Shown: positions 40,963-47,461 of the stretch, one piece after another
Numbering within the stretch: position 1 is the stretch's first letter
How the letters are laid out: every line of letters starts with the position of its first letter
Source: Candidatus Poriferihabitaceae bacterium
Lineage (GTDB): Bacteria; Pseudomonadota; Gammaproteobacteria; Arenicellales; Poriferihabitantaceae
Assembly (NCBI GenBank): GCA_965214625.1
Contig: OZ243962.1
Coordinates: forward strand, 91,326 to 155,325
Direction: 5' to 3'
Length of the DNA stretch: 64,000 bases
Translations under genes and position numbers: made by a program
Notes under the pieces: generated by a model
Seen by the model: the letters and a program-made list of their open reading frames with translations, nothing else
The model's database searches: none
What the model was told of the DNA's origin: nothing

Positions 40963-41778
40963 ATGAATCCAATCATTAACACAGGCATCAAGGCCGTCCG
41001 TCGCGCCGGCAATCTCATTATTCGTTACTTCGATCGACTCGATCGACTCACGGTCAAGCGAAAAGGATACAATGATTTTGTCAGTGAAGTCGATCGGATG
41101 GCAGAAGACGAAATGATTGATATCATTCACTCCCTCTATCCCGCTCACCGGATTCTCGCCGAGGAAAGTGGGCAACAACGTTCGCCACCCCATGACGTCC
41201 CGCCGAAAGAATCGGTCGAGTGGATTATTGATCCTCTCGATGGTACGACCAATTACCTTCATGGACACCCGCATTTTTGTGTCTCCCTTGCCGTTAGAAT
41301 CAATGACCGCATTGAACATGCGATTGTCTTTGATCCGTTGCGCGATGAAATTTTTACCGCCAGCCGGGGACAAGGAGCCCAGTTGAACAATCGTCGCATA
41401 CGGGTCAGTGGCCAGAGGAAACTGGGGCAGTCGATCATCTCCACTGGTATTTCGACGCTTGACGCGGTCCACTGTGATGCATGGATGGACAGTTTCAAGG
41501 CCGTGTTACTCCGGACCAATACGGTTCGTTACTCGGGCTCGGCGGCGCTGGACCTCGCTTATGTCGCTAGTGGACGTGTGGACGGTTATTGGGAACCGGG
41601 ACTCAAAATATGGGATATTGCCGGCGGAACACTGCTGGTCAGGGAGGCCGGCGGCTATGTTGCAGATTTTGCCGGACAACAGGATTTTCTTGCCAGCGGT
41701 CATGTTGTGGCAGGCAATCAGGGTATTTTCAGCGAGCTGATGAACATTATCAAAAACAAGGCTGGCCAGATGCAGTGA
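40963..41778 (+). CDS. suhB: Inositol monophosphatase family protein SuhB
   Basis: WIIDPLDGTTNY, GSAALDLAYVASG, WDIAGG; divergent from trmJ. Confidence 0.95.
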   Translation: MNPIINTGIKAVRRAGNLIIRYFDRLDRLTVKRKGYNDFVSEVDRMAEDEMIDIIHSLYPAHRILAEESGQQRSPPHDVPPKESVEWIIDPLDGTTNYLHGHPHFCVSLAVRINDRIEHAIVFDPLRDEIFTASRGQGAQLNNRRIRVSGQRKLGQSIISTGISTLDAVHCDAWMDSFKAVLLRTNTVRYSGSAALDLAYVASGRVDGYWEPGLKIWDIAGGTLLVREAGGYVADFAGQQDFLASGHVVAGNQGIFSELMNIIKNKAGQMQ

Positions 41779-41851
41779 ATAAGCCGTTGTCACTTCCCTG
41801 AATGCAGCGACCCTGGAGGATCGTCTGGCCGACCACACGCCAATGATGCGC
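41775..41851 (+). pseudogene. mutS': Orphaned original 5' end of mutS (frameshifted)
   Basis: 41798-41851 reads LNAATLEDRLADHTPMMR, the MutS N-terminal HTPMMxQ motif. GTG at 41775 overlaps the suhB stop but is 1 nt out of frame. Confidence 0.75.
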
Positions 41852-42142
41852 AGGTGTTTTTGCGTTGATATATAAGGTATTTTTTAATTTTTCACGTATA
41901 AATCTATCCTATATGTTGCAGTTTTTTAAGGAGCTATAAAATTCTGAATAGTTGCGATTTGCTCGCCATCACACGCTTTCAATCGATGAATGACGAGCAC
42001 ACATGCGGCCATGCAAAGCCTGTTGTACGAACGCCATGGAAGCATTCTTTTTCGACTCGACAAATTGCCGAATCTGACTGGCCACGGCGTCAGCCTAGTT
42101 CAAGCCAGGGCCCTGTACCCATTACTCCTTCTGAACATTACT

Positions 42143-42333
42143 TCACCGCGCCCGCATCTGTTCGGCCAGTTCATAGCCAAACGTGCCGTTCGACAGCCAT
42201 TCATAGCCGCGCCACATGATCTGATGGCCCGGGGCGGATCATGTTTGCGATGCCGATAGCCCCCCAGAATGGCCACCAGTCGCACCGCCGCCAAGTGGTC
42301 CGGTGGTAGCTTGTGGCGGGTCGACGCATAATC
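42143..42333 (-). pseudogene. IS4-family (IS50/Tn5-like) transposase C-terminal fragment, frameshifted
   Basis: DYA…LAAVRLVAILGGYRHRKHDPP / GHQIMWRGYEWL, with 1 nt missing at PP(P)G; matches the LGGxxxRKxDxxPGxxxxWRG dimerisation motif. Confidence 0.8.
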
Positions 42334-42542
42334 GCACCGGAATGAGTCACGCGACCCTATATCGTCGAATCAGTGAAGGCTTATTCCCTCCCGGGGTTTC
42401 CCTTGGTAATCGTTCTGTCGGCTGGCTGGCCCATGAAGTGGACACGATGTTAAATGCATTTGCCTCGGGAAAAACGACAGAGGAACTTCAAGCCGTGGTA
42501 AAATTCTCATTGAATAGTGGCAGACTCTGGCCAGTTGATTGA
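42333..42542 (+). pseudogene. AlpA-family regulator, N-terminally truncated
   Basis: RTGMSHATLYRRISEGLFPPGVSLGNRSVGW..HEV AlpA signature; abuts the IS4 fragment. Confidence 0.8.
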
Positions 42543-42700
42543 GCGATTCCCCCCTTCGAATTAGCTGCCGGAGTTAACTTGGGACAATAACCTCCATTCA
42601 CCACCTATAACCCGCTTCCGCCACTTTTATTTCTCATAATTAATAAATATACTGCACATTACCCGCTATGCAACATATATTTCTTATTTTTAAGTAACTA

Positions 42701-42730
42701 TTGACATATTGCACTGCATCGACCTATAGT
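42701..42730 (+). promoter_or_regulatory. Sigma70 promoter of hipBA
   Basis: TTGACA-N18-TATAGT, then GGAGA RBS and ATG 42752. Confidence 0.7.
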
Positions 42731-42751
42731 TTCTTTTATTGGAGAAATTTT

Positions 42752-43045
42752 ATGGCCAGAAAAATTACGCCGTTACCCCTGCCCACCTCCCCGGTCGTCG
42801 ATTCGGCGGAGGCGTTCGGCACATTTGTGCGCAGCCTGCGCACGCAACAACAACTGCGCATCGATGATGCCGCTGCACTGTGCGGTGTTTCGGTTCAGCT
42901 GCTCTCGGATCTTGAAAATGGCAACCGTTCCGTCGGCCTGGACAAGGCCCTGGCAGTTGCACGGCAACTGGGGCTCACCCTGCTGGCGGTACCAAAATCG
43001 GCGCAACCCCAGGCAATTGCCGCCATCAAGAGTCAGTCATTATGA
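42752..43045 (+). CDS. hipB: HipB-like XRE-family antitoxin
   Basis: FGTFVRSLRTQQQLRIDDAAALCGVSVQLLSDLENG HTH; ATGA overlap with hipA. Confidence 0.85.
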   Translation: MARKITPLPLPTSPVVDSAEAFGTFVRSLRTQQQLRIDDAAALCGVSVQLLSDLENGNRSVGLDKALAVARQLGLTLLAVPKSAQPQAIAAIKSQSL

Positions 43046-44370
43046 CAACTCACAGTCTTTCAGCCTGGATTGGTGAACAACAGGTTGGCACCCTGAGCTT
43101 TCACGACGATACCGGACGCTTCTCTTTCGAATACGAACAGAGCTGGGTGACGAATAGCGACGCTTATCCAATCTCCCCCGCCCTCCCGTTTCGGCGTCCG
43201 GACGACCAAACGGATGAACTGCATTCGGTCAACGTACGCCGCTTCTTTGAGAATCTGCTGCCCGAAGGCAAAGCCCTGGAGGATGCGGCTGCAGCGCACA
43301 CGGTCTCAAAAGGCAACCTGTTTGGTCTGCTGCGCTGGCTGGGCCAGGAGAGTACAGGCGCGCTTGCCCTGTTGCCTGAAGGCACCCTGCCGGCCCGGGT
43401 TGAACCGATCGTGCGCGAAGTCGCCTTTGAAGAGCTCTCCGAGCGCATTCATGACCGGGCCAATCGTCCCTTCAATGTATGGGACGGCCGGGTACGCATG
43501 TCCATTGCCGGTTATCAGGATAAACTGGCGGTCTATGCTGCTGAGGGAGGAAAACTGTCCCTGGTGGAAGGCCGGCTGGCTTCGACGCATATCCTCAAGC
43601 CGGAGCCGATGAACCCAAAGCTATCCAGGCTGGTGGCCAATGAGCACTTTTGCTTGAAGCTGGCTGCCGCACTCGGTATACCCTCGGCCGAGGTAGAGAT
43701 TCTACGAGCACCGGAGCCGGTACTGATGGTCAAACGCTTCGACCGCACCAAACACGACCGCCATGTCGAGCGTTTACATGCGGTGGATAGCTGCCAGGTG
43801 CTCAATCTCAGCGTCAACCACAAGTATGAACGCAATTTCGGCAGTGGGCGTGATGTCGCCACTATTCGGGACGGCGTCAGTTTCGAGAAGCTCTTCTCCA
43901 TCGCTCCGCTCACCCTGTCTCAAGCGGCCACGCGCATGGCACTGATCCGTTGGGCGATCCTGCAATACCTGATCGGCAATAGTGATGCCCATGGCAAAAA
44001 TATCTCGTTTCTGGTCGAGCCGGGTGGCCTACGCCTCGCCCCTGCTTACGACCTGGTTTCGGTGTGCATCTACCCGGATATCGAACACGAATTTGCCATG
44101 GCCATCGGTGACGAGTTCGACATGACTAAAGTCCGCGCCTTTGATTGGGCAGACTTTTCCGACCGCTGTGGCATAGAACGCCGCCTTCTGGTGCGTGAGA
44201 TGAACCGGATGATCAAAGTGATCAGAATCCAGCTACCGACATTACTATCTCTACCCAATTACATTGAGGAAGAGCACGCCATGCTGCAGAAGATCTCGGA
44301 CATGGCCCTGCAACAGGCTGAGCGACTGGAAATCGATGCGAAAATGATTGCGAAAGTGGTCATTGAATAG
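43042..44370 (+). CDS. hipA: HipA-family Ser/Thr kinase toxin
   Basis: FFENLLPEG, MSIAGYQDK, HILKP, NEHFC, KRFDR, GNSDAHGKNIS, LAPAYD; all intact. Confidence 0.93.
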   Translation: MTTHSLSAWIGEQQVGTLSFHDDTGRFSFEYEQSWVTNSDAYPISPALPFRRPDDQTDELHSVNVRRFFENLLPEGKALEDAAAAHTVSKGNLFGLLRWLGQESTGALALLPEGTLPARVEPIVREVAFEELSERIHDRANRPFNVWDGRVRMSIAGYQDKLAVYAAEGGKLSLVEGRLASTHILKPEPMNPKLSRLVANEHFCLKLAAALGIPSAEVEILRAPEPVLMVKRFDRTKHDRHVERLHAVDSCQVLNLSVNHKYERNFGSGRDVATIRDGVSFEKLFSIAPLTLSQAATRMALIRWAILQYLIGNSDAHGKNISFLVEPGGLRLAPAYDLVSVCIYPDIEHEFAMAIGDEFDMTKVRAFDWADFSDRCGIERRLLVREMNRMIKVIRIQLPTLLSLPNYIEEEHAMLQKISDMALQQAERLEIDAKMIAKVVIE

Positions 44371-44587
44371 AAGCTGGTGCAGCTTCAGCCCGTTCCAATG
44401 AGCGAGTCCAGATGATCCGCCATTTCTGATCGGCCCGATTCGTGCTCCCAGCCCCCCGACCCCCCGGAAATGAAGTGAAATCATGCCTTGATTAGGCTAT
44501 CCTTCGAGACAGTGTTGTCGATGATATCATTCCCCTTGTTGTCGATTCACCACCCCCAAATCTGAAAAACCCTACAGCGCAAGTCCC

Positions 44588-44808
44588 TCCTGTACTACAT
44601 CCTGTACTACTACAGTGTTCTGGCAGATAGAGATTTGGTATCCTGTAATGTTGCTATGGGTATCCTCTTGAATTAATGTCAGTTTGTCCGACGAAACGGA
44701 AAAAAGTGTAGGTTGTAATCTTTCGCAAAATTTACACCAGAAAGATCTACACTTCAACCTATAATTTTTTGTGAGATTGGATGATATTTCGTGAGACTCA
44801 ATGAGACT
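44588..44808. repeat. Cluster of short phased repeats (integrase arm-site-like)
   Basis: TCCTGTACTAC x2 (44588, 44600); IR AAAAAGTGTAGGTTG/CAACCTATAATTTTT (44701, 44755); TTTACACC/TCTACACT; RTGAGAYT at 44771, 44791, 44801. Confidence 0.6.
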
Positions 44809-44869
44809 TTAAGAAACGGCACAAAAACGATAAATACTTAAAAATCAATAAGTAGAGCAGCGTAATGGC

Positions 44870-47461
44870 ATGAGTTTATTAAAAAAAAAGGAACAACATA
44901 CACCAATGATTCGTCAGTATTTGACGATCAAGGCAGATTATCCCGACACATTGCTGTTTTACCGCATGGGCGATTTTTATGAACTGTTCTATGATGATGC
45001 CGAAAAAGCCTCGGCACTACTCGATATTACGCTGACCGCCCGGGGCAAGTCGGGTGGCACCGAGATACCGATGGCCGGTGTCCCAGTGCACAGTGTTGAT
45101 CAATACCTGGCCAGGCTGGTCAAGCGCAATATGACTATTGCCATCTGCGAACAGATCGGCGATCCCGGTACGACAAAGGGGCCGGTGGAACGAAAAGTAG
45201 TCAGAGTCCTGACACCGGGAACACTGACGGAAGAAAATCTCCTGGCAGATCGTCAGGAAAATCTCACCGCCGCGATTTTCGAACATCACAATCAGATCGG
45301 TATTGCCACTCTTGAAATTTCCAGTGGTCGCTTTCGTGGTATTGAGGTGCCCCACATTGATCAACTCCCGGAGGAAATGGAACGTCTTCAGGCAGCAGAA
45401 ATTGTGGTGGCCCAGAATCAGCATGGGCTGTTTGACCAGCAATGGGAAAAACCACTCCCTGACTGGTATTTTGATACCACCCGAACCACCCGAGTACTTT
45501 GTGAAACCTTTGCAACCCAGAATCTTGAGGCATTTGAAAGCAGCCAATTTCCGTTAGCTACCCGGGCGGCCGGCGCACTGGTGCAGTATATCCGCGATCT
45601 TCATGATCAAAAAACACCGCATATCCGATCGATCAAATACGAAAGACATGACACCACGATCATCATCGATGCCGTGACACGTCGGAATCTGGAACTGGAC
45701 AGCAACCAAAGTGGCACGACGGATAATACACTCATAAAGCTGTTTGACCATTGTGCGACCCCAATGGGTGCACGTATGTTGAAACGATGGTTTAGCAGTC
45801 CGATCCGGGACCGTGAAAAACTGCAATGCCGGCACAACGCCATCGACTGGCTACTGACTGATCAACGGTATGTCGATCTCCAGCCGCTGCTAAAGCAAAT
45901 TGGTGATCTGGAACGCATTGTTGCCCGGGTTGCGATGAAAACGGCCCGCCCGAGAGATTTGTTGCGGTTGCGCTACGCATTGGAAATCACACCCAAACTG
46001 GTCTCTTGTCTCGAGAGTACCTCATCACGGATCATTCGCTGTCTGTTGCCATCACTGCAGATTGATCCGATGCATTTGACACTGTTGGTCCGTGCGATCA
46101 GGGAAAACCCGCCGAGCACGATTCGCGATGGCGGCATGTTGAGAGATGATTACGACAGTGAACTCAAGGCGCTGCGTCATCTGCAGCGCGATTCAAGCGA
46201 GTTTCTGCTTGAACTCGAAACAAGGGAGCGGGAAAAAACCGGCGTTGCCAACCTCAAGGTAAAGTACAACCGGGTACACGGTTACTATATAGAACTGCCA
46301 CGCGCCCATGCCGAGAAAGTCCCCACAGGCTATATACGCAGACAAACGATCAAGCACGCCGAACGTTTCATTACAGAAGAACTTAAGTTGTTTGAAGACA
46401 GGATATTGAGTGCCAAAGGCAAGGCACTGGCAAGAGAAAAGTGGCTGTATAATGCATTGCTTGAAATCCTGATCCCGCATGTTGATGTCTTGTTGCAATG
46501 TGCGGGGGCCCTGGCAGAACTGGATGTATTGAACAACCTGGCAGAACGTGCCCAGAGTTTGAATTTGAGTCGTCCAGTCTATAGTAAGGCCAGTCTCATC
46601 GAAATCAGGGAAGGACGGCATCCGATCGTCGAAAAGATGCTTAGCGGAAAGTTTATTGCGAATTCGACGAAATTAGATCACGAACAACGGGTACAGATCA
46701 TTACCGGGCCCAATATGGGTGGTAAAAGCACCTATATGCGGCAGGTAGCCGTGACCACCCTGCTGGCCCATACGGGGTCTTATGTCCCAGCTACTTCCGC
46801 CACTTTCGGACCGATCGACCGGATATTTACACGCATCGGGGCATCCGATGACATCGCCAGTGGTCGCTCAACTTTCATGGTGGAAATGACCGAGATGGCT
46901 CATATTCTGCGTAATGCAACGGAACACAGTCTAGTGCTGGTGGACGAAATCGGGCGGGGAACAAGTACATTCGACGGTCTTGCGCTGGCCTGGGCCTGTG
47001 CCAGCGATCTTGCCACAAGAGTGAACGCTTTTGTTCTGTTCTCGACCCACTACTTTGAAATAACGGCACTTGCCGATCAACTCGACAATGTGAGTAATGT
47101 GCACCTGGATGCAGCAGAGCATGGCAATGAGGTCGTTTTTCTTTATAGTGTGCAGTCAGGTCCGGCAAATCAAAGTTATGGTTTGCAGGTGGCGAGATTA
47201 GCCGGTGTGCCGAATAAAGTGATCGAGATGTCCCGAAGTCGATTGAAAGAACTTGAAAAACAGTATGCGGGTAAGATGGAAATCACAACTCGGAATGACT
47301 TCTCCCAATCTAACCTGTTTGCAGAAAGTCGCCCGGAAGAACAGGCAGTTATCGCACGACTAGGTACGGTTTCTCCTGACAAGACATCCCCTCGGGAGGC
47401 GCTTGATCTGCTGTATGAGTTAAATGAGTTGCTGGCAGGTCATCTGACAGATAAACACTAG
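44870..47461 (+). CDS. mutS: DNA mismatch repair protein MutS
   Basis: [43 protein letters not shown]. Confidence 0.98.

Follow-up and report, generated by a model that had tools for sequence, protein, structure and literature searches.

The window analysed here, the whole 64,000-nucleotide stretch of DNA from Candidatus Poriferihabitaceae bacterium, raises the question of why its mutS gene starts with an N-terminus of the MSLLKKKEQ type, 3063 bp beyond an orphan MutS stub that lies directly 3' of suhB, in frame, and translates as …LEDRLADHTPMMR. The segments follow one another in the order suhB, MutS stub, element left end, transposase and alpA debris, hipB, hipA, integrase remnants, right end and mutS (Table 1). 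A previous sequence-only reading had proposed a fossil integrated element that supplies the working start of mutS. The remnant between suhB and mutS, whose only intact genes are hipB and hipA, very probably belongs, in decayed form, to the mutS-targeting elements that Chu et al. 2017 described (mBio, PMC5296598).

Table 1. Features of the suhB-mutS region (window coordinates)
Feature	Position	Strand	Evidence or remarks
suhB (inositol monophosphatase family)	40963..41778	+	Pfam PF00459 Inositol_P, E 1.2e-63; host gene adjoining mutS in relatives
Orphan host-derived mutS 5' stub, …SLNAATLEDRLADHTPMMR	41783..41851	+	translation; without in-frame ATG/GTG/TTG
attL-side direct repeat copy	41834..41859	+	core CCAATGAT at 41840-41847
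Element left end, GCAGGTGTTT…AAGGTATTTTTTAA…CTATCCTATATGTTGCAGTTTTT	41852..41945	+	aligns with left ends of other carriers
Transposase C-terminal fragment, frameshifted, probably IS4 family	42146..42339	-	two frames, …AAVRLVAILGGYRHRKHDPP and PGHQIMWRGYEWLSNGTFGYELAEQMRAR (stop)
alpA pseudogene	42330..42542	+	AlpA fragment 42303-42542; L045 homology from 42330; PF05930 E 8e-12, profile positions 12-48 only
Promoter-like site 5' of hipB (TTGACA-18-TATAGT)	42701..42730	+	11/12 consensus matches
hipB antitoxin, 97 aa, XRE-type HTH	42752..43045	+	PF01381 HTH_3 E 1.4e-9; XRE-family PDB matches
hipA toxin kinase, 442 aa, intact	43042..44370	+	HipA_C (PF07804) E 8e-48; Couple_hipA (PF13657) E 1e-20
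Integrase gene 3' remnant (…ADHLDSLIGTG, stop)	44385..44429	-	14 codons
Filler, about 180 bp	44430..44609	.	in place of ~1227 bp of integrase; 36-nt repeat 44554-44589, 12-nt tandem unit 44588-44610
Integrase gene 5' remnant, IPIATLQDTKSLSARTL (two stops)	44613..44663	-	17 codons; compared with L045 MPMATVQNTKPLSSRTV and alignment A1
Element right end (int-mutS intergenic)	44664..44869	+	YTACAC cluster, inverted repeat, conserved block up to start codon
mutS, 863 aa	44870..47461	+	five MutS Pfam domains; first ~10 codons element-derived
attR-side direct repeat copy	44897..44922	+	core CCAATGAT at 44903-44910

The stub frame 41783-41875 translates as AVVTSLNAATLEDRLADHTPMMRRCFCVDI followed by a stop and begins right behind an in-frame TAA located 2 nt past the suhB stop. 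The 17 stub codons from this TAA to the His codon include no canonical start (ATG, GTG or TTG); the stub being short and having three CTG codons, the absent start could reflect a non-canonical start rather than decay. Two further genomes have stubs of like kind, MSNTVSPSHTPMM and MSSKQETQHTPMM, ahead of the same left end. The position directly behind suhB is where 24 of 29 relatives begin mutS, with HTPMM in frame there, which agrees with the stranded MutS N-terminus recognised previously; the N-terminal extension of the stub is not alignable to those of the relatives, no two of which are alike. Further on, the mutS product has the GDFYE, Walker A and DEIGRGT motifs, and its ATG at 44870 is the first start following the in-frame stop. 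The 24 related loci in which suhB directly abuts mutS encode other MutS N-termini and none has the MSLLKKKEQ start, as had been anticipated for relatives free of the island. Among the 29, the MSLL-type start occurs only in G012 and G032, neither of which has an adjacent suhB and both of which have the element right end; this start is found only along with that right end. It is common to element-bearing G012, G032, G182, G146 and others. Elements from hosts with a MutS of just ~50% identity also have this start and ~260 bp of DNA upstream of it, at 75-89%. No start other than the one in element DNA is available to mutS.

The two copies of the imperfect direct repeat, whose cores at 41840 and 44903 had been noticed before, agree at 19 of 26 positions (73%) with a start-to-start spacing of 3063. 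Both encode HTPM in frame, which puts the insertion site among the HTPMM(Q/R)Q codons of the mutS 5' end. The HTPM-coding pattern CAYACNCCNATGAT has exactly two matches in the 64-kb window, both at the repeat copies, for 0.02 expected, and two matches were obtained in 0 of 100 shuffles. Host-specific sequence begins just past CCAATGAT in alignment A1. The left end aligns with those of G012, Sedimenticola selenatireducens (L079) and G043 (L080) and with an attP-like junction of G199; a host stub plus a homologous left end is found in two other genomes. The right end, 75-89% identical to its counterpart in seven loci with intact or broken integrase, presumably holds the mutS promoter and arm-type sites. 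The phased repeats mentioned in the sequence-only reading correspond to a cluster of three YTACAC motifs spanning 47 bp (44706-44752), to a 16-nt inverted repeat (44700-44715/44755-44770) whose arms co-vary between two subtypes in alignment A1, and to a 12-nt tandem repeat of 1.9 copies (TRF, 44588-44610). A consensus promoter scan of 44600-44869 upstream of mutS called no sigma-70-like site; alignment A1 has a conserved block within this interval, up to the mutS start. The promoter of mutS probably lies within the ~260 bp that are left of the right end, and selection for mismatch repair would maintain this end.

No integrase ORF was found between the repeats, as claimed before, and only two gene ends are present. 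Intact relatives have between hipA and mutS a divergent 441-aa tyrosine integrase gene with Phage_integrase, Arm-DNA-bind_3 and Phage_int_M domains, a comparison that shows the fossil status of the window copy directly. The order hipB-hipA-int(441 aa, minus strand)-mutS is found at about 94% nucleotide identity in six intact loci, those of two Sedimenticola species among them (L045 of S. selenatireducens, L066 of S. hydrogenitrophicus, L047, L048, L049 and L060). In four of the six, L045, L049, L060 and L066, an alpA was found 5' of hipB. Window positions 42330-44428 match L045 9286-11388 at 94.5% and positions 44610-45084 match L045 12616-13092 at 77%, so that L045 11389-12615, flanked by matches on both sides, is missing from the window; the same two deletion breakpoints recur in the comparison with seven loci. 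The stretch 44371-44428 aligns immediately behind hipA in 11 other loci. The filler has no match in any related locus; its 36-mer is found again at G000:C1:1548473, and run contigs have doubled depth and loose ends there. Both Met codons of the 5' remnant are now ATA. A search of the organism's own genome for an integrase acting in trans gave six PF00589 matches and no related integrase, the best match being a broken integrase with 30% identity over the arm domain. Having neither an integrase of its own nor a relative of it in the rest of the genome, the remnant would no longer be able to excise.

The alpA gene has lost its first ~16 codons and its C-terminus has diverged, confirming the AlpA debris; the intact AlpA of L045 and L049 has 85 aa. 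AlpA is the usual excision factor. Of the IS4 debris reported alongside, a transposase-like fragment was recovered, a C-terminal and frameshifted remainder of only ~60 aa, while its IS4 identity is weakly suggested by six weak plasmid tblastn matches (E 0.6-0.9), every one within a gene that bears an IS4 family transposase annotation; NCBIfam profiles gave 0 families for it and there is no second copy in the genome.

The hipB-hipA pair is intact, as first read, with HTH_3, HipA_C and Couple_hipA matches and an ATGA overlap at 43042-43045. HipB is 97% identical to HipB of G012 and L066. HipA matches the HipA-family toxin of PDB 4pu5/4pu3 at E 1.2e-86 with alignment of GN(S/A)DAHGKN and YDLVSV; we take GN.DAHGKN and YDLVSV to be its catalytic motifs. 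No stops occur in hipA of 10 homologues, the pairwise dN/dS of hipBA is about 0.16-0.29, and the changes specific to the window are 9 synonymous and 7 nonsynonymous. Judging from these substitutions, hipBA is under purifying selection. The promoter-like site upstream of hipB has an internal palindrome and is also kept in G012; promoter-like sites in the region are no more numerous than in shuffles, so that this site is weak alone. The intactness of the pair, its purifying selection and the close trimming of its flanks in two lineages suggest that hipBA may guard the remnant, and it could be kept either since its loss is costly (addiction) or since it is useful. Remnants of the family devoid of hipBA are present in G146 and G182, hence the toxin-antitoxin pair is not needed for remnant persistence. 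In the class sample hipBA is absent from two of the three elements with readable flank, and in element L107 alpA directly adjoins int with no hipBA between.

We favour the following scenario. A tyrosine-integrase element aimed at the HTPMM codons of mutS would once have inserted between suhB and mutS, splitting off the host mutS start and placing before the gene its own right end, with an ATG and upstream DNA. Internal deletions, and probably also an IS4-type insertion, would then have removed almost all of the element. The outcome would be the 3.06-kb remnant, its integrase down to 17 + 14 codons, its alpA truncated and its backbone lost.

Other explanations were weighed against this decay. 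MSLLKKKEQ could be the native start of mutS, the HTPMM stub a chance likeness or a local duplication and the hipBA region an ordinary intergenic insertion; the stub has indeed no canonical start codon and MutS N-terminal extensions are not conserved among relatives. However, this candidate is contradicted by the starts of the relatives (MSLLKKKEQ is absent from 24/24 with adjacent suhB), by the upstream DNA shared with elements of distant hosts, by the element left end behind the stub and by the two HTPM-coding matches where 0.02 were expected; it was rejected and keeps practically no probability. An assembly artefact, in which two co-occurring hipBA variants were mis-joined into a false suhB-hipBA-mutS order, is very unlikely. 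A second hipBA variant is present and run contigs break inside hipBA, but contigs of three runs, which come from a single study and from which the assembly itself may have been made, bridge with 0 differences both suhB, stub, left end, alpA and hipB (41400-42896) and right end and mutS (44560-45400), and the same gene order is found independently in G012, a single-contig genome.

Less remote than an artefact, yet still improbable, is that the 3-kb unit is a live integrase-less mini-element flanked by att sites (CIME-like), excised and moved by a helper integrase belonging to its own family, and shared in reduced form between the window lineage and G012. Both genomes lack the integrase in their copies, the window retains att-side repeats and both element ends, and the two have a common left-end subtype and sister hipBA at 95% nucleotide identity, yet belong to different genera (MutS 62% identical, suhB 65-70% nucleotide identity); the three runs that contain the window's organism also yield contigs with the G012-type junction. 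Against such movement, the two copies share no breakpoint (42330, 44428 and 44610 in the window; window-equivalent 42586, 44405 and 44799 in G012), their left fillers are unrelated, alpA is truncated in the window and undetected in G012, the attL and attR copies are alike at only 19/26 positions and a related integrase is absent from the window's own genome. The empty 41840->44903 junction proposed as a check was seen in none of the contigs of the three runs; Logan contigs cannot reveal rare excision.

The integrase family is specific in its target: in the class sample an integrase at least 57% identical is found in seven genomes and adjoins mutS in six, and 233 bp separate mutS from a 67%-identical integrase in an E. 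coli chromosome. Decay as favoured here is not restricted to the window. Remnants with no integrase or a truncated one, yet with the element-type start of mutS, recur in other genomes. Integrase-less stubs at mutS were seen in G000, G012, G146, G182, G351 and G416. Four of the five right ends at mutS in the order sample have no adjacent integrase, and the eight other genomes with a right end in the class sample comprise four full integrases, two truncated and two unresolved; in the scanned samples integrase-less or truncated cases are about as frequent as intact copies. G012, of another genus, holds an integrase-less remnant with a sister hipBA. As the hipA tree joins the two remnants as sisters (100/99), their decay may not be independent, and both may come from a common integrase-less ancestor moved in trans. 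The same hipBA pair is trimmed to about 35-170 bp on both sides in these two co-occurring genera, which points either to toxin-antitoxin addiction shaping survival or to a helper-moved integrase-less mini-element passing between community members. A broader reading, which we put forward tentatively as possible rather than likely, is that integrase loss acts as a one-way ratchet: the right end could not be shed without losing the mutS start, integrase-less stubs would pile up across Gammaproteobacteria, and the trimming in two genera would come from either of these two processes.

The locus would represent the end state of a published phenomenon: once the integrase is lost, the start of a core repair gene, and probably its expression signals as well, are permanently those of foreign DNA. 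As a natural experiment it could show whether the cargo that outlasts element decay is decided by a toxin-antitoxin pair. In annotation, both the orphan stub and the true N-terminus of MutS are worth marking.

The predicted toxin-antitoxin pair resembles HipBA type II systems (closest solved 4pu3/4pu5; E. coli HipA 3dnt and others) in its two-domain HipA kinase with aligned catalytic-loop and Mg-binding motifs, its overlapping upstream XRE-HTH antitoxin and its promoter-like site with internal palindrome; it differs in being cargo between alpA and int in one element sub-lineage. CIMEs, the cis-mobilisable elements described for streptococcal ICEs, are att-flanked remnants without recombination genes. 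The window remnant is likewise flanked by both att-side repeats and has no integrase of its own, but its genome has no helper integrase, its repeats have diverged and its movement was not seen in contigs.

The closest known systems, named in the sequence-only reading for Vibrio splendidus 12B01, are real. In the part of Chu et al. 2017 (PMC5296598) used here, elements in the HTPMMQQ motif of mutS supply a new start and promoter, with the integrase adjoining mutS, in V. splendidus 12B01, E. coli 536, P. putida F1 and B. multivorans CF2; their sizes range from 4 kb to >150 kb, and degradation is raised there as one possibility only for the 7-kb element of E. norvegicus FF-162. The survey in this part searched by integrase and an integrase-less copy like that of the window would therefore escape it. 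The window element has the same target codons, orphaned host start upstream, element-supplied mutS start and direct repeats at its ends, and its six intact relatives likewise have a tyrosine integrase next to mutS. It differs from the elements described there by the lack of this integrase (31 codons left) and by its size of 3.06 kb, under their range. Keeping only 17 + 14 integrase codons, it is a decayed derivative of these elements rather than a functional member.

The complete mutS of the window and an orphan piece of its 5' end lie on either side of a roughly 3-kb interval behind suhB (see table). It is a genuine and well-delimited fossil of an element whose kind is known, one that integrates at the HTPMM codons of mutS. 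The frame behind suhB translates as AVVTSLNAATLEDRLADHTPMMRRCFCVDI followed by a stop, and no ATG, GTG or TTG is found among its 17 codons preceding the His codon. The HTPM-coding stretches of this host-derived stub and of mutS are imperfect direct repeats of each other (26 nt at 73% identity, starts 3063 nt apart), and the pattern CAYACNCCNATGAT occurs only at the two repeat copies within the 64 kb, with 0.02 occurrences expected. The base composition of the interval is AT-rich at the ends and GC-rich in the middle.

Features from suhB to mutS, in window positions
Feature	Position	Strand	Assignment or remark
suhB	ends 41778		Pfam Inositol_P
mutS stub frame	from 41783		immediately after in-frame TAA
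Direct repeat, left copy	41834-41859		HTPM-coding
Transposase-like C-terminal fragment	42146-42339	minus	frameshifted; 6/6 weak plasmid matches fall in annotated IS4 family transposase genes
AlpA fragment			PF05930
hipB	42752-43045		HTH_3, E 1.4e-9
hipA	43042-44370		HipA_C and Couple_hipA
36-nt repeat in filler	44554-44589		97% common to G000:C1:1548473-1548509
Inverted repeat, right arm	44755-44770		int-mutS intergenic region
TATAAT	44760-44765		within the right arm
mutS	start 44870		complete, 863 aa; five MutS domains; GDFYE, Walker A and DEIGRGT motifs present
Direct repeat, right copy	44897-44922		HTPM-coding

The sequence-only reading held that the MSLLKKKEQ start of the window's MutS is not native, and its own check, whether relatives free of the island keep that start, did not refute it. 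Twenty-nine loci were read from a MutS search across 40 related genomes; 24 have a SuhB match immediately upstream of mutS, and the N-termini preceding HTPMM in these 24 are all different, none being of the MSLL type. The mutS start of two genomes, G012 (a relative in another genus) and G032, resembles that of the window, ending (G/E)KKEQHTPM, with no suhB within 1.5 kb in either.

Intact relatives of the element came from a HipA scan of one genome per species, which yielded 27 loci. Six of these, namely L045 of Sedimenticola selenatireducens, L066 of S. hydrogenitrophicus, L047, L048, L049 and L060, carry hipB-hipA followed by a gene of 441 aa in the opposite orientation and by a mutS whose start is of the MSLL or MSS type; alpA is found upstream of hipB in four. 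The 441-aa gene encodes a tyrosine integrase with Phage_integrase, Arm-DNA-bind_3 and Phage_int_M domains. Genes for an S24 peptidase, DUF2857, AcaB and a ParM-like protein farther upstream in L045 suggest that the backbone is larger and may be conjugative. In S. selenatireducens the two ends of the element are on separate contigs. A pattern search found host stubs, MSNTVSPSHTPMM… and MSSKQETQHTPMM… (S. selenatireducens and G043), that continue into the left-end sequence following the window's stub. Across five hipA-bearing genomes no stub was found within 1.5 kb of suhB, and mutS there is not adjacent to suhB.

The integrases of this family are specific for their target. Among 400 genomes sampled evenly from the class, seven encode one with 57% identity or more; mutS adjoins it in six, and the seventh stops at a contig edge. 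Matches of 64-66% at the nucleotide level were obtained in 8 of 5,426 E. coli genomes, and the integrase of the one examined is 67% identical in amino acids and lies on the opposite strand, 233 bp from mutS. The E. coli locus L125 (NZ_LR536431.1 1108574-1121821) has this int-mutS arrangement, with genes for a TrlF family AAA-like ATPase and hypothetical proteins behind the integrase and an annotated MutS start reading MSLNDNVNLDSHTPMM.

Comparison with L045 shows what the window has lost. Window 42330-44428 corresponds to L045 9286-11388 with 94.5% identity and window 44610-45084 to L045 12616-13092 with 77%, whereas 181 bases of unrelated sequence stand in place of L045 11389-12615 (~1227 bp, almost the entire integrase). 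The integrase was deleted in the window, and both edges of the gap recur when the window is compared with seven loci. The integrase leftovers are …ADHLDSLIGTG, ending in a stop, and IPIATLQDTKSLSARTL followed by two stops, whose L045 counterpart is MPMATVQNTKPLSSRTV. The replacing filler contains a 12-nt tandem unit and a 36-nt repeat shared with one other site of the genome; the latter has several differing flanks in run contigs and is thus a short dispersed repeat. The int-mutS intergenic region, which is retained, holds three YTACAC motifs in 47 bp and an inverted repeat with arms that co-vary between two subtypes of the element, plausible candidates for arm-type sites. Two changes in the right arm relative to the left create a perfect TATAAT, 105 nt before the mutS ATG, where other elements have TACACT. 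No promoter was called upstream of mutS, and this TATAAT has no acceptable -35.

The transposase fragment gives no HMM match and has no further copy in the genome or the fetched loci, and the left debris (41852-42335) has no nucleotide match in the fetched loci or the rest of the genome; the filler of G012 is likewise without match. The window's alpA lacks its first ~16 codons (intact AlpA is 85 aa long). A promoter-like site, TTGACA-18-TATAGT, stands 5' of hipB, and the hipA product aligns to the solved HipA-family toxin 4pu5 (E 1e-86), including the catalytic-loop and Mg-site motifs. Rfam returned no match within 41700-45000 at E up to 1.

hipBA is cargo of one element sub-lineage: in one related element alpA directly adjoins int, and in another hipA is missing behind int. 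The hipA reading frame is open in each of the ten copies compared, with pairwise dN/dS of 0.16-0.29, and lineage-specific synonymous to nonsynonymous changes number 9:7 in the window and 11:15 in G012, small counts that, with the ratios, are compatible with purifying selection. A hipA tree of 15 rows, omitting L053 and L065, whose hipA is truncated, as well as the more remote L057-L059, L061-L064 and L068-L071, places the copies of the window and of G012 as sisters (support 100/99). They share 95% nucleotide identity in hipBA versus 65-70% in suhB, so the element arrived long after the hosts diverged. The two remnants could descend from a shared ancestor already devoid of integrase, in keeping with their sister hipA copies, but their deletion edges and fillers differ, and independent decay is the simpler reading. 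A second hipBA variant (region of window 42586-42896) is present, in the three runs whose contigs also bridge the window's island junctions, on a 17-kb contig with a G012-type junction as upstream flank, so a G012-like organism co-occurs with the window's organism.

Decay of mutS-targeting elements is recurrent. The right end is present in 6 of 243 genomes of the window's order, the window included. G012 retains a 2.27-kb suhB-stub-hipBA-mutS remnant; G146 has a different remnant, of 2.8 kb; G182 has no integrase within 12.5 kb; G032 keeps integrase residues 1-243, running to the contig end; and G199 carries an attP-like junction away from mutS. At the G146 locus (L101 1-3924, G146:C2) the remnant that separates suhB from mutS contains an ORF of 519 aa with a Fic domain and a piece of a zinc-ribbon transposase of the IS1595 type; the element-type start there is MNSLVKKENQTPMM, with the motif H replaced by Q, and no host stub was recognised. 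At the G199 junction (L099 17625-17960, G199:C1 ~1051.6-1052.0 kb) the right end, with an MSLLEKK… start, runs directly into the left end, and the genome's own mutS, ~117 kb away, has a native-type start; the element may have integrated by another route, or the copy may be tandem or rearranged. Eight other genomes of the class sample have the right end, four with a full integrase, two with a truncated one (G351, G416) and two ending at contig edges. Two hipBA-bearing loci look like intermediate stages of decay: in L051 integrase residues 387-441 adjoin hipA, another piece is 5.8 kb off and mutS is 3.5 kb downstream, and in L050 the integrase is in three fragments.

It is unlikely that a helper integrase could still move the att-flanked remnant. 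The genome has six PF00589 matches, and the L045 integrase query finds in it at best 30% identity, over the arm domain of a gene that is itself broken. In three runs of a single study, which is possibly the assembly source, contigs bridge both island junctions with zero differences and contain no joint across the island, although rare excision would escape contig data; two short joints that were listed have sides of 21-23 nt and are not at the repeats, and no contig of a fourth run matched the region. The sequence shows that mutS depends on an element-derived start codon; we infer that the element also supplies its promoter, and hipBA presumably plays an addiction role. In the literature searched, elements inside mutS are treated only by Chu et al. 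2017 (PMC5296598), and no paper on integrase-less mutS remnants came up. The target-specific family described above, with the integrase adjoining mutS, agrees with the elements of Chu et al. 2017.
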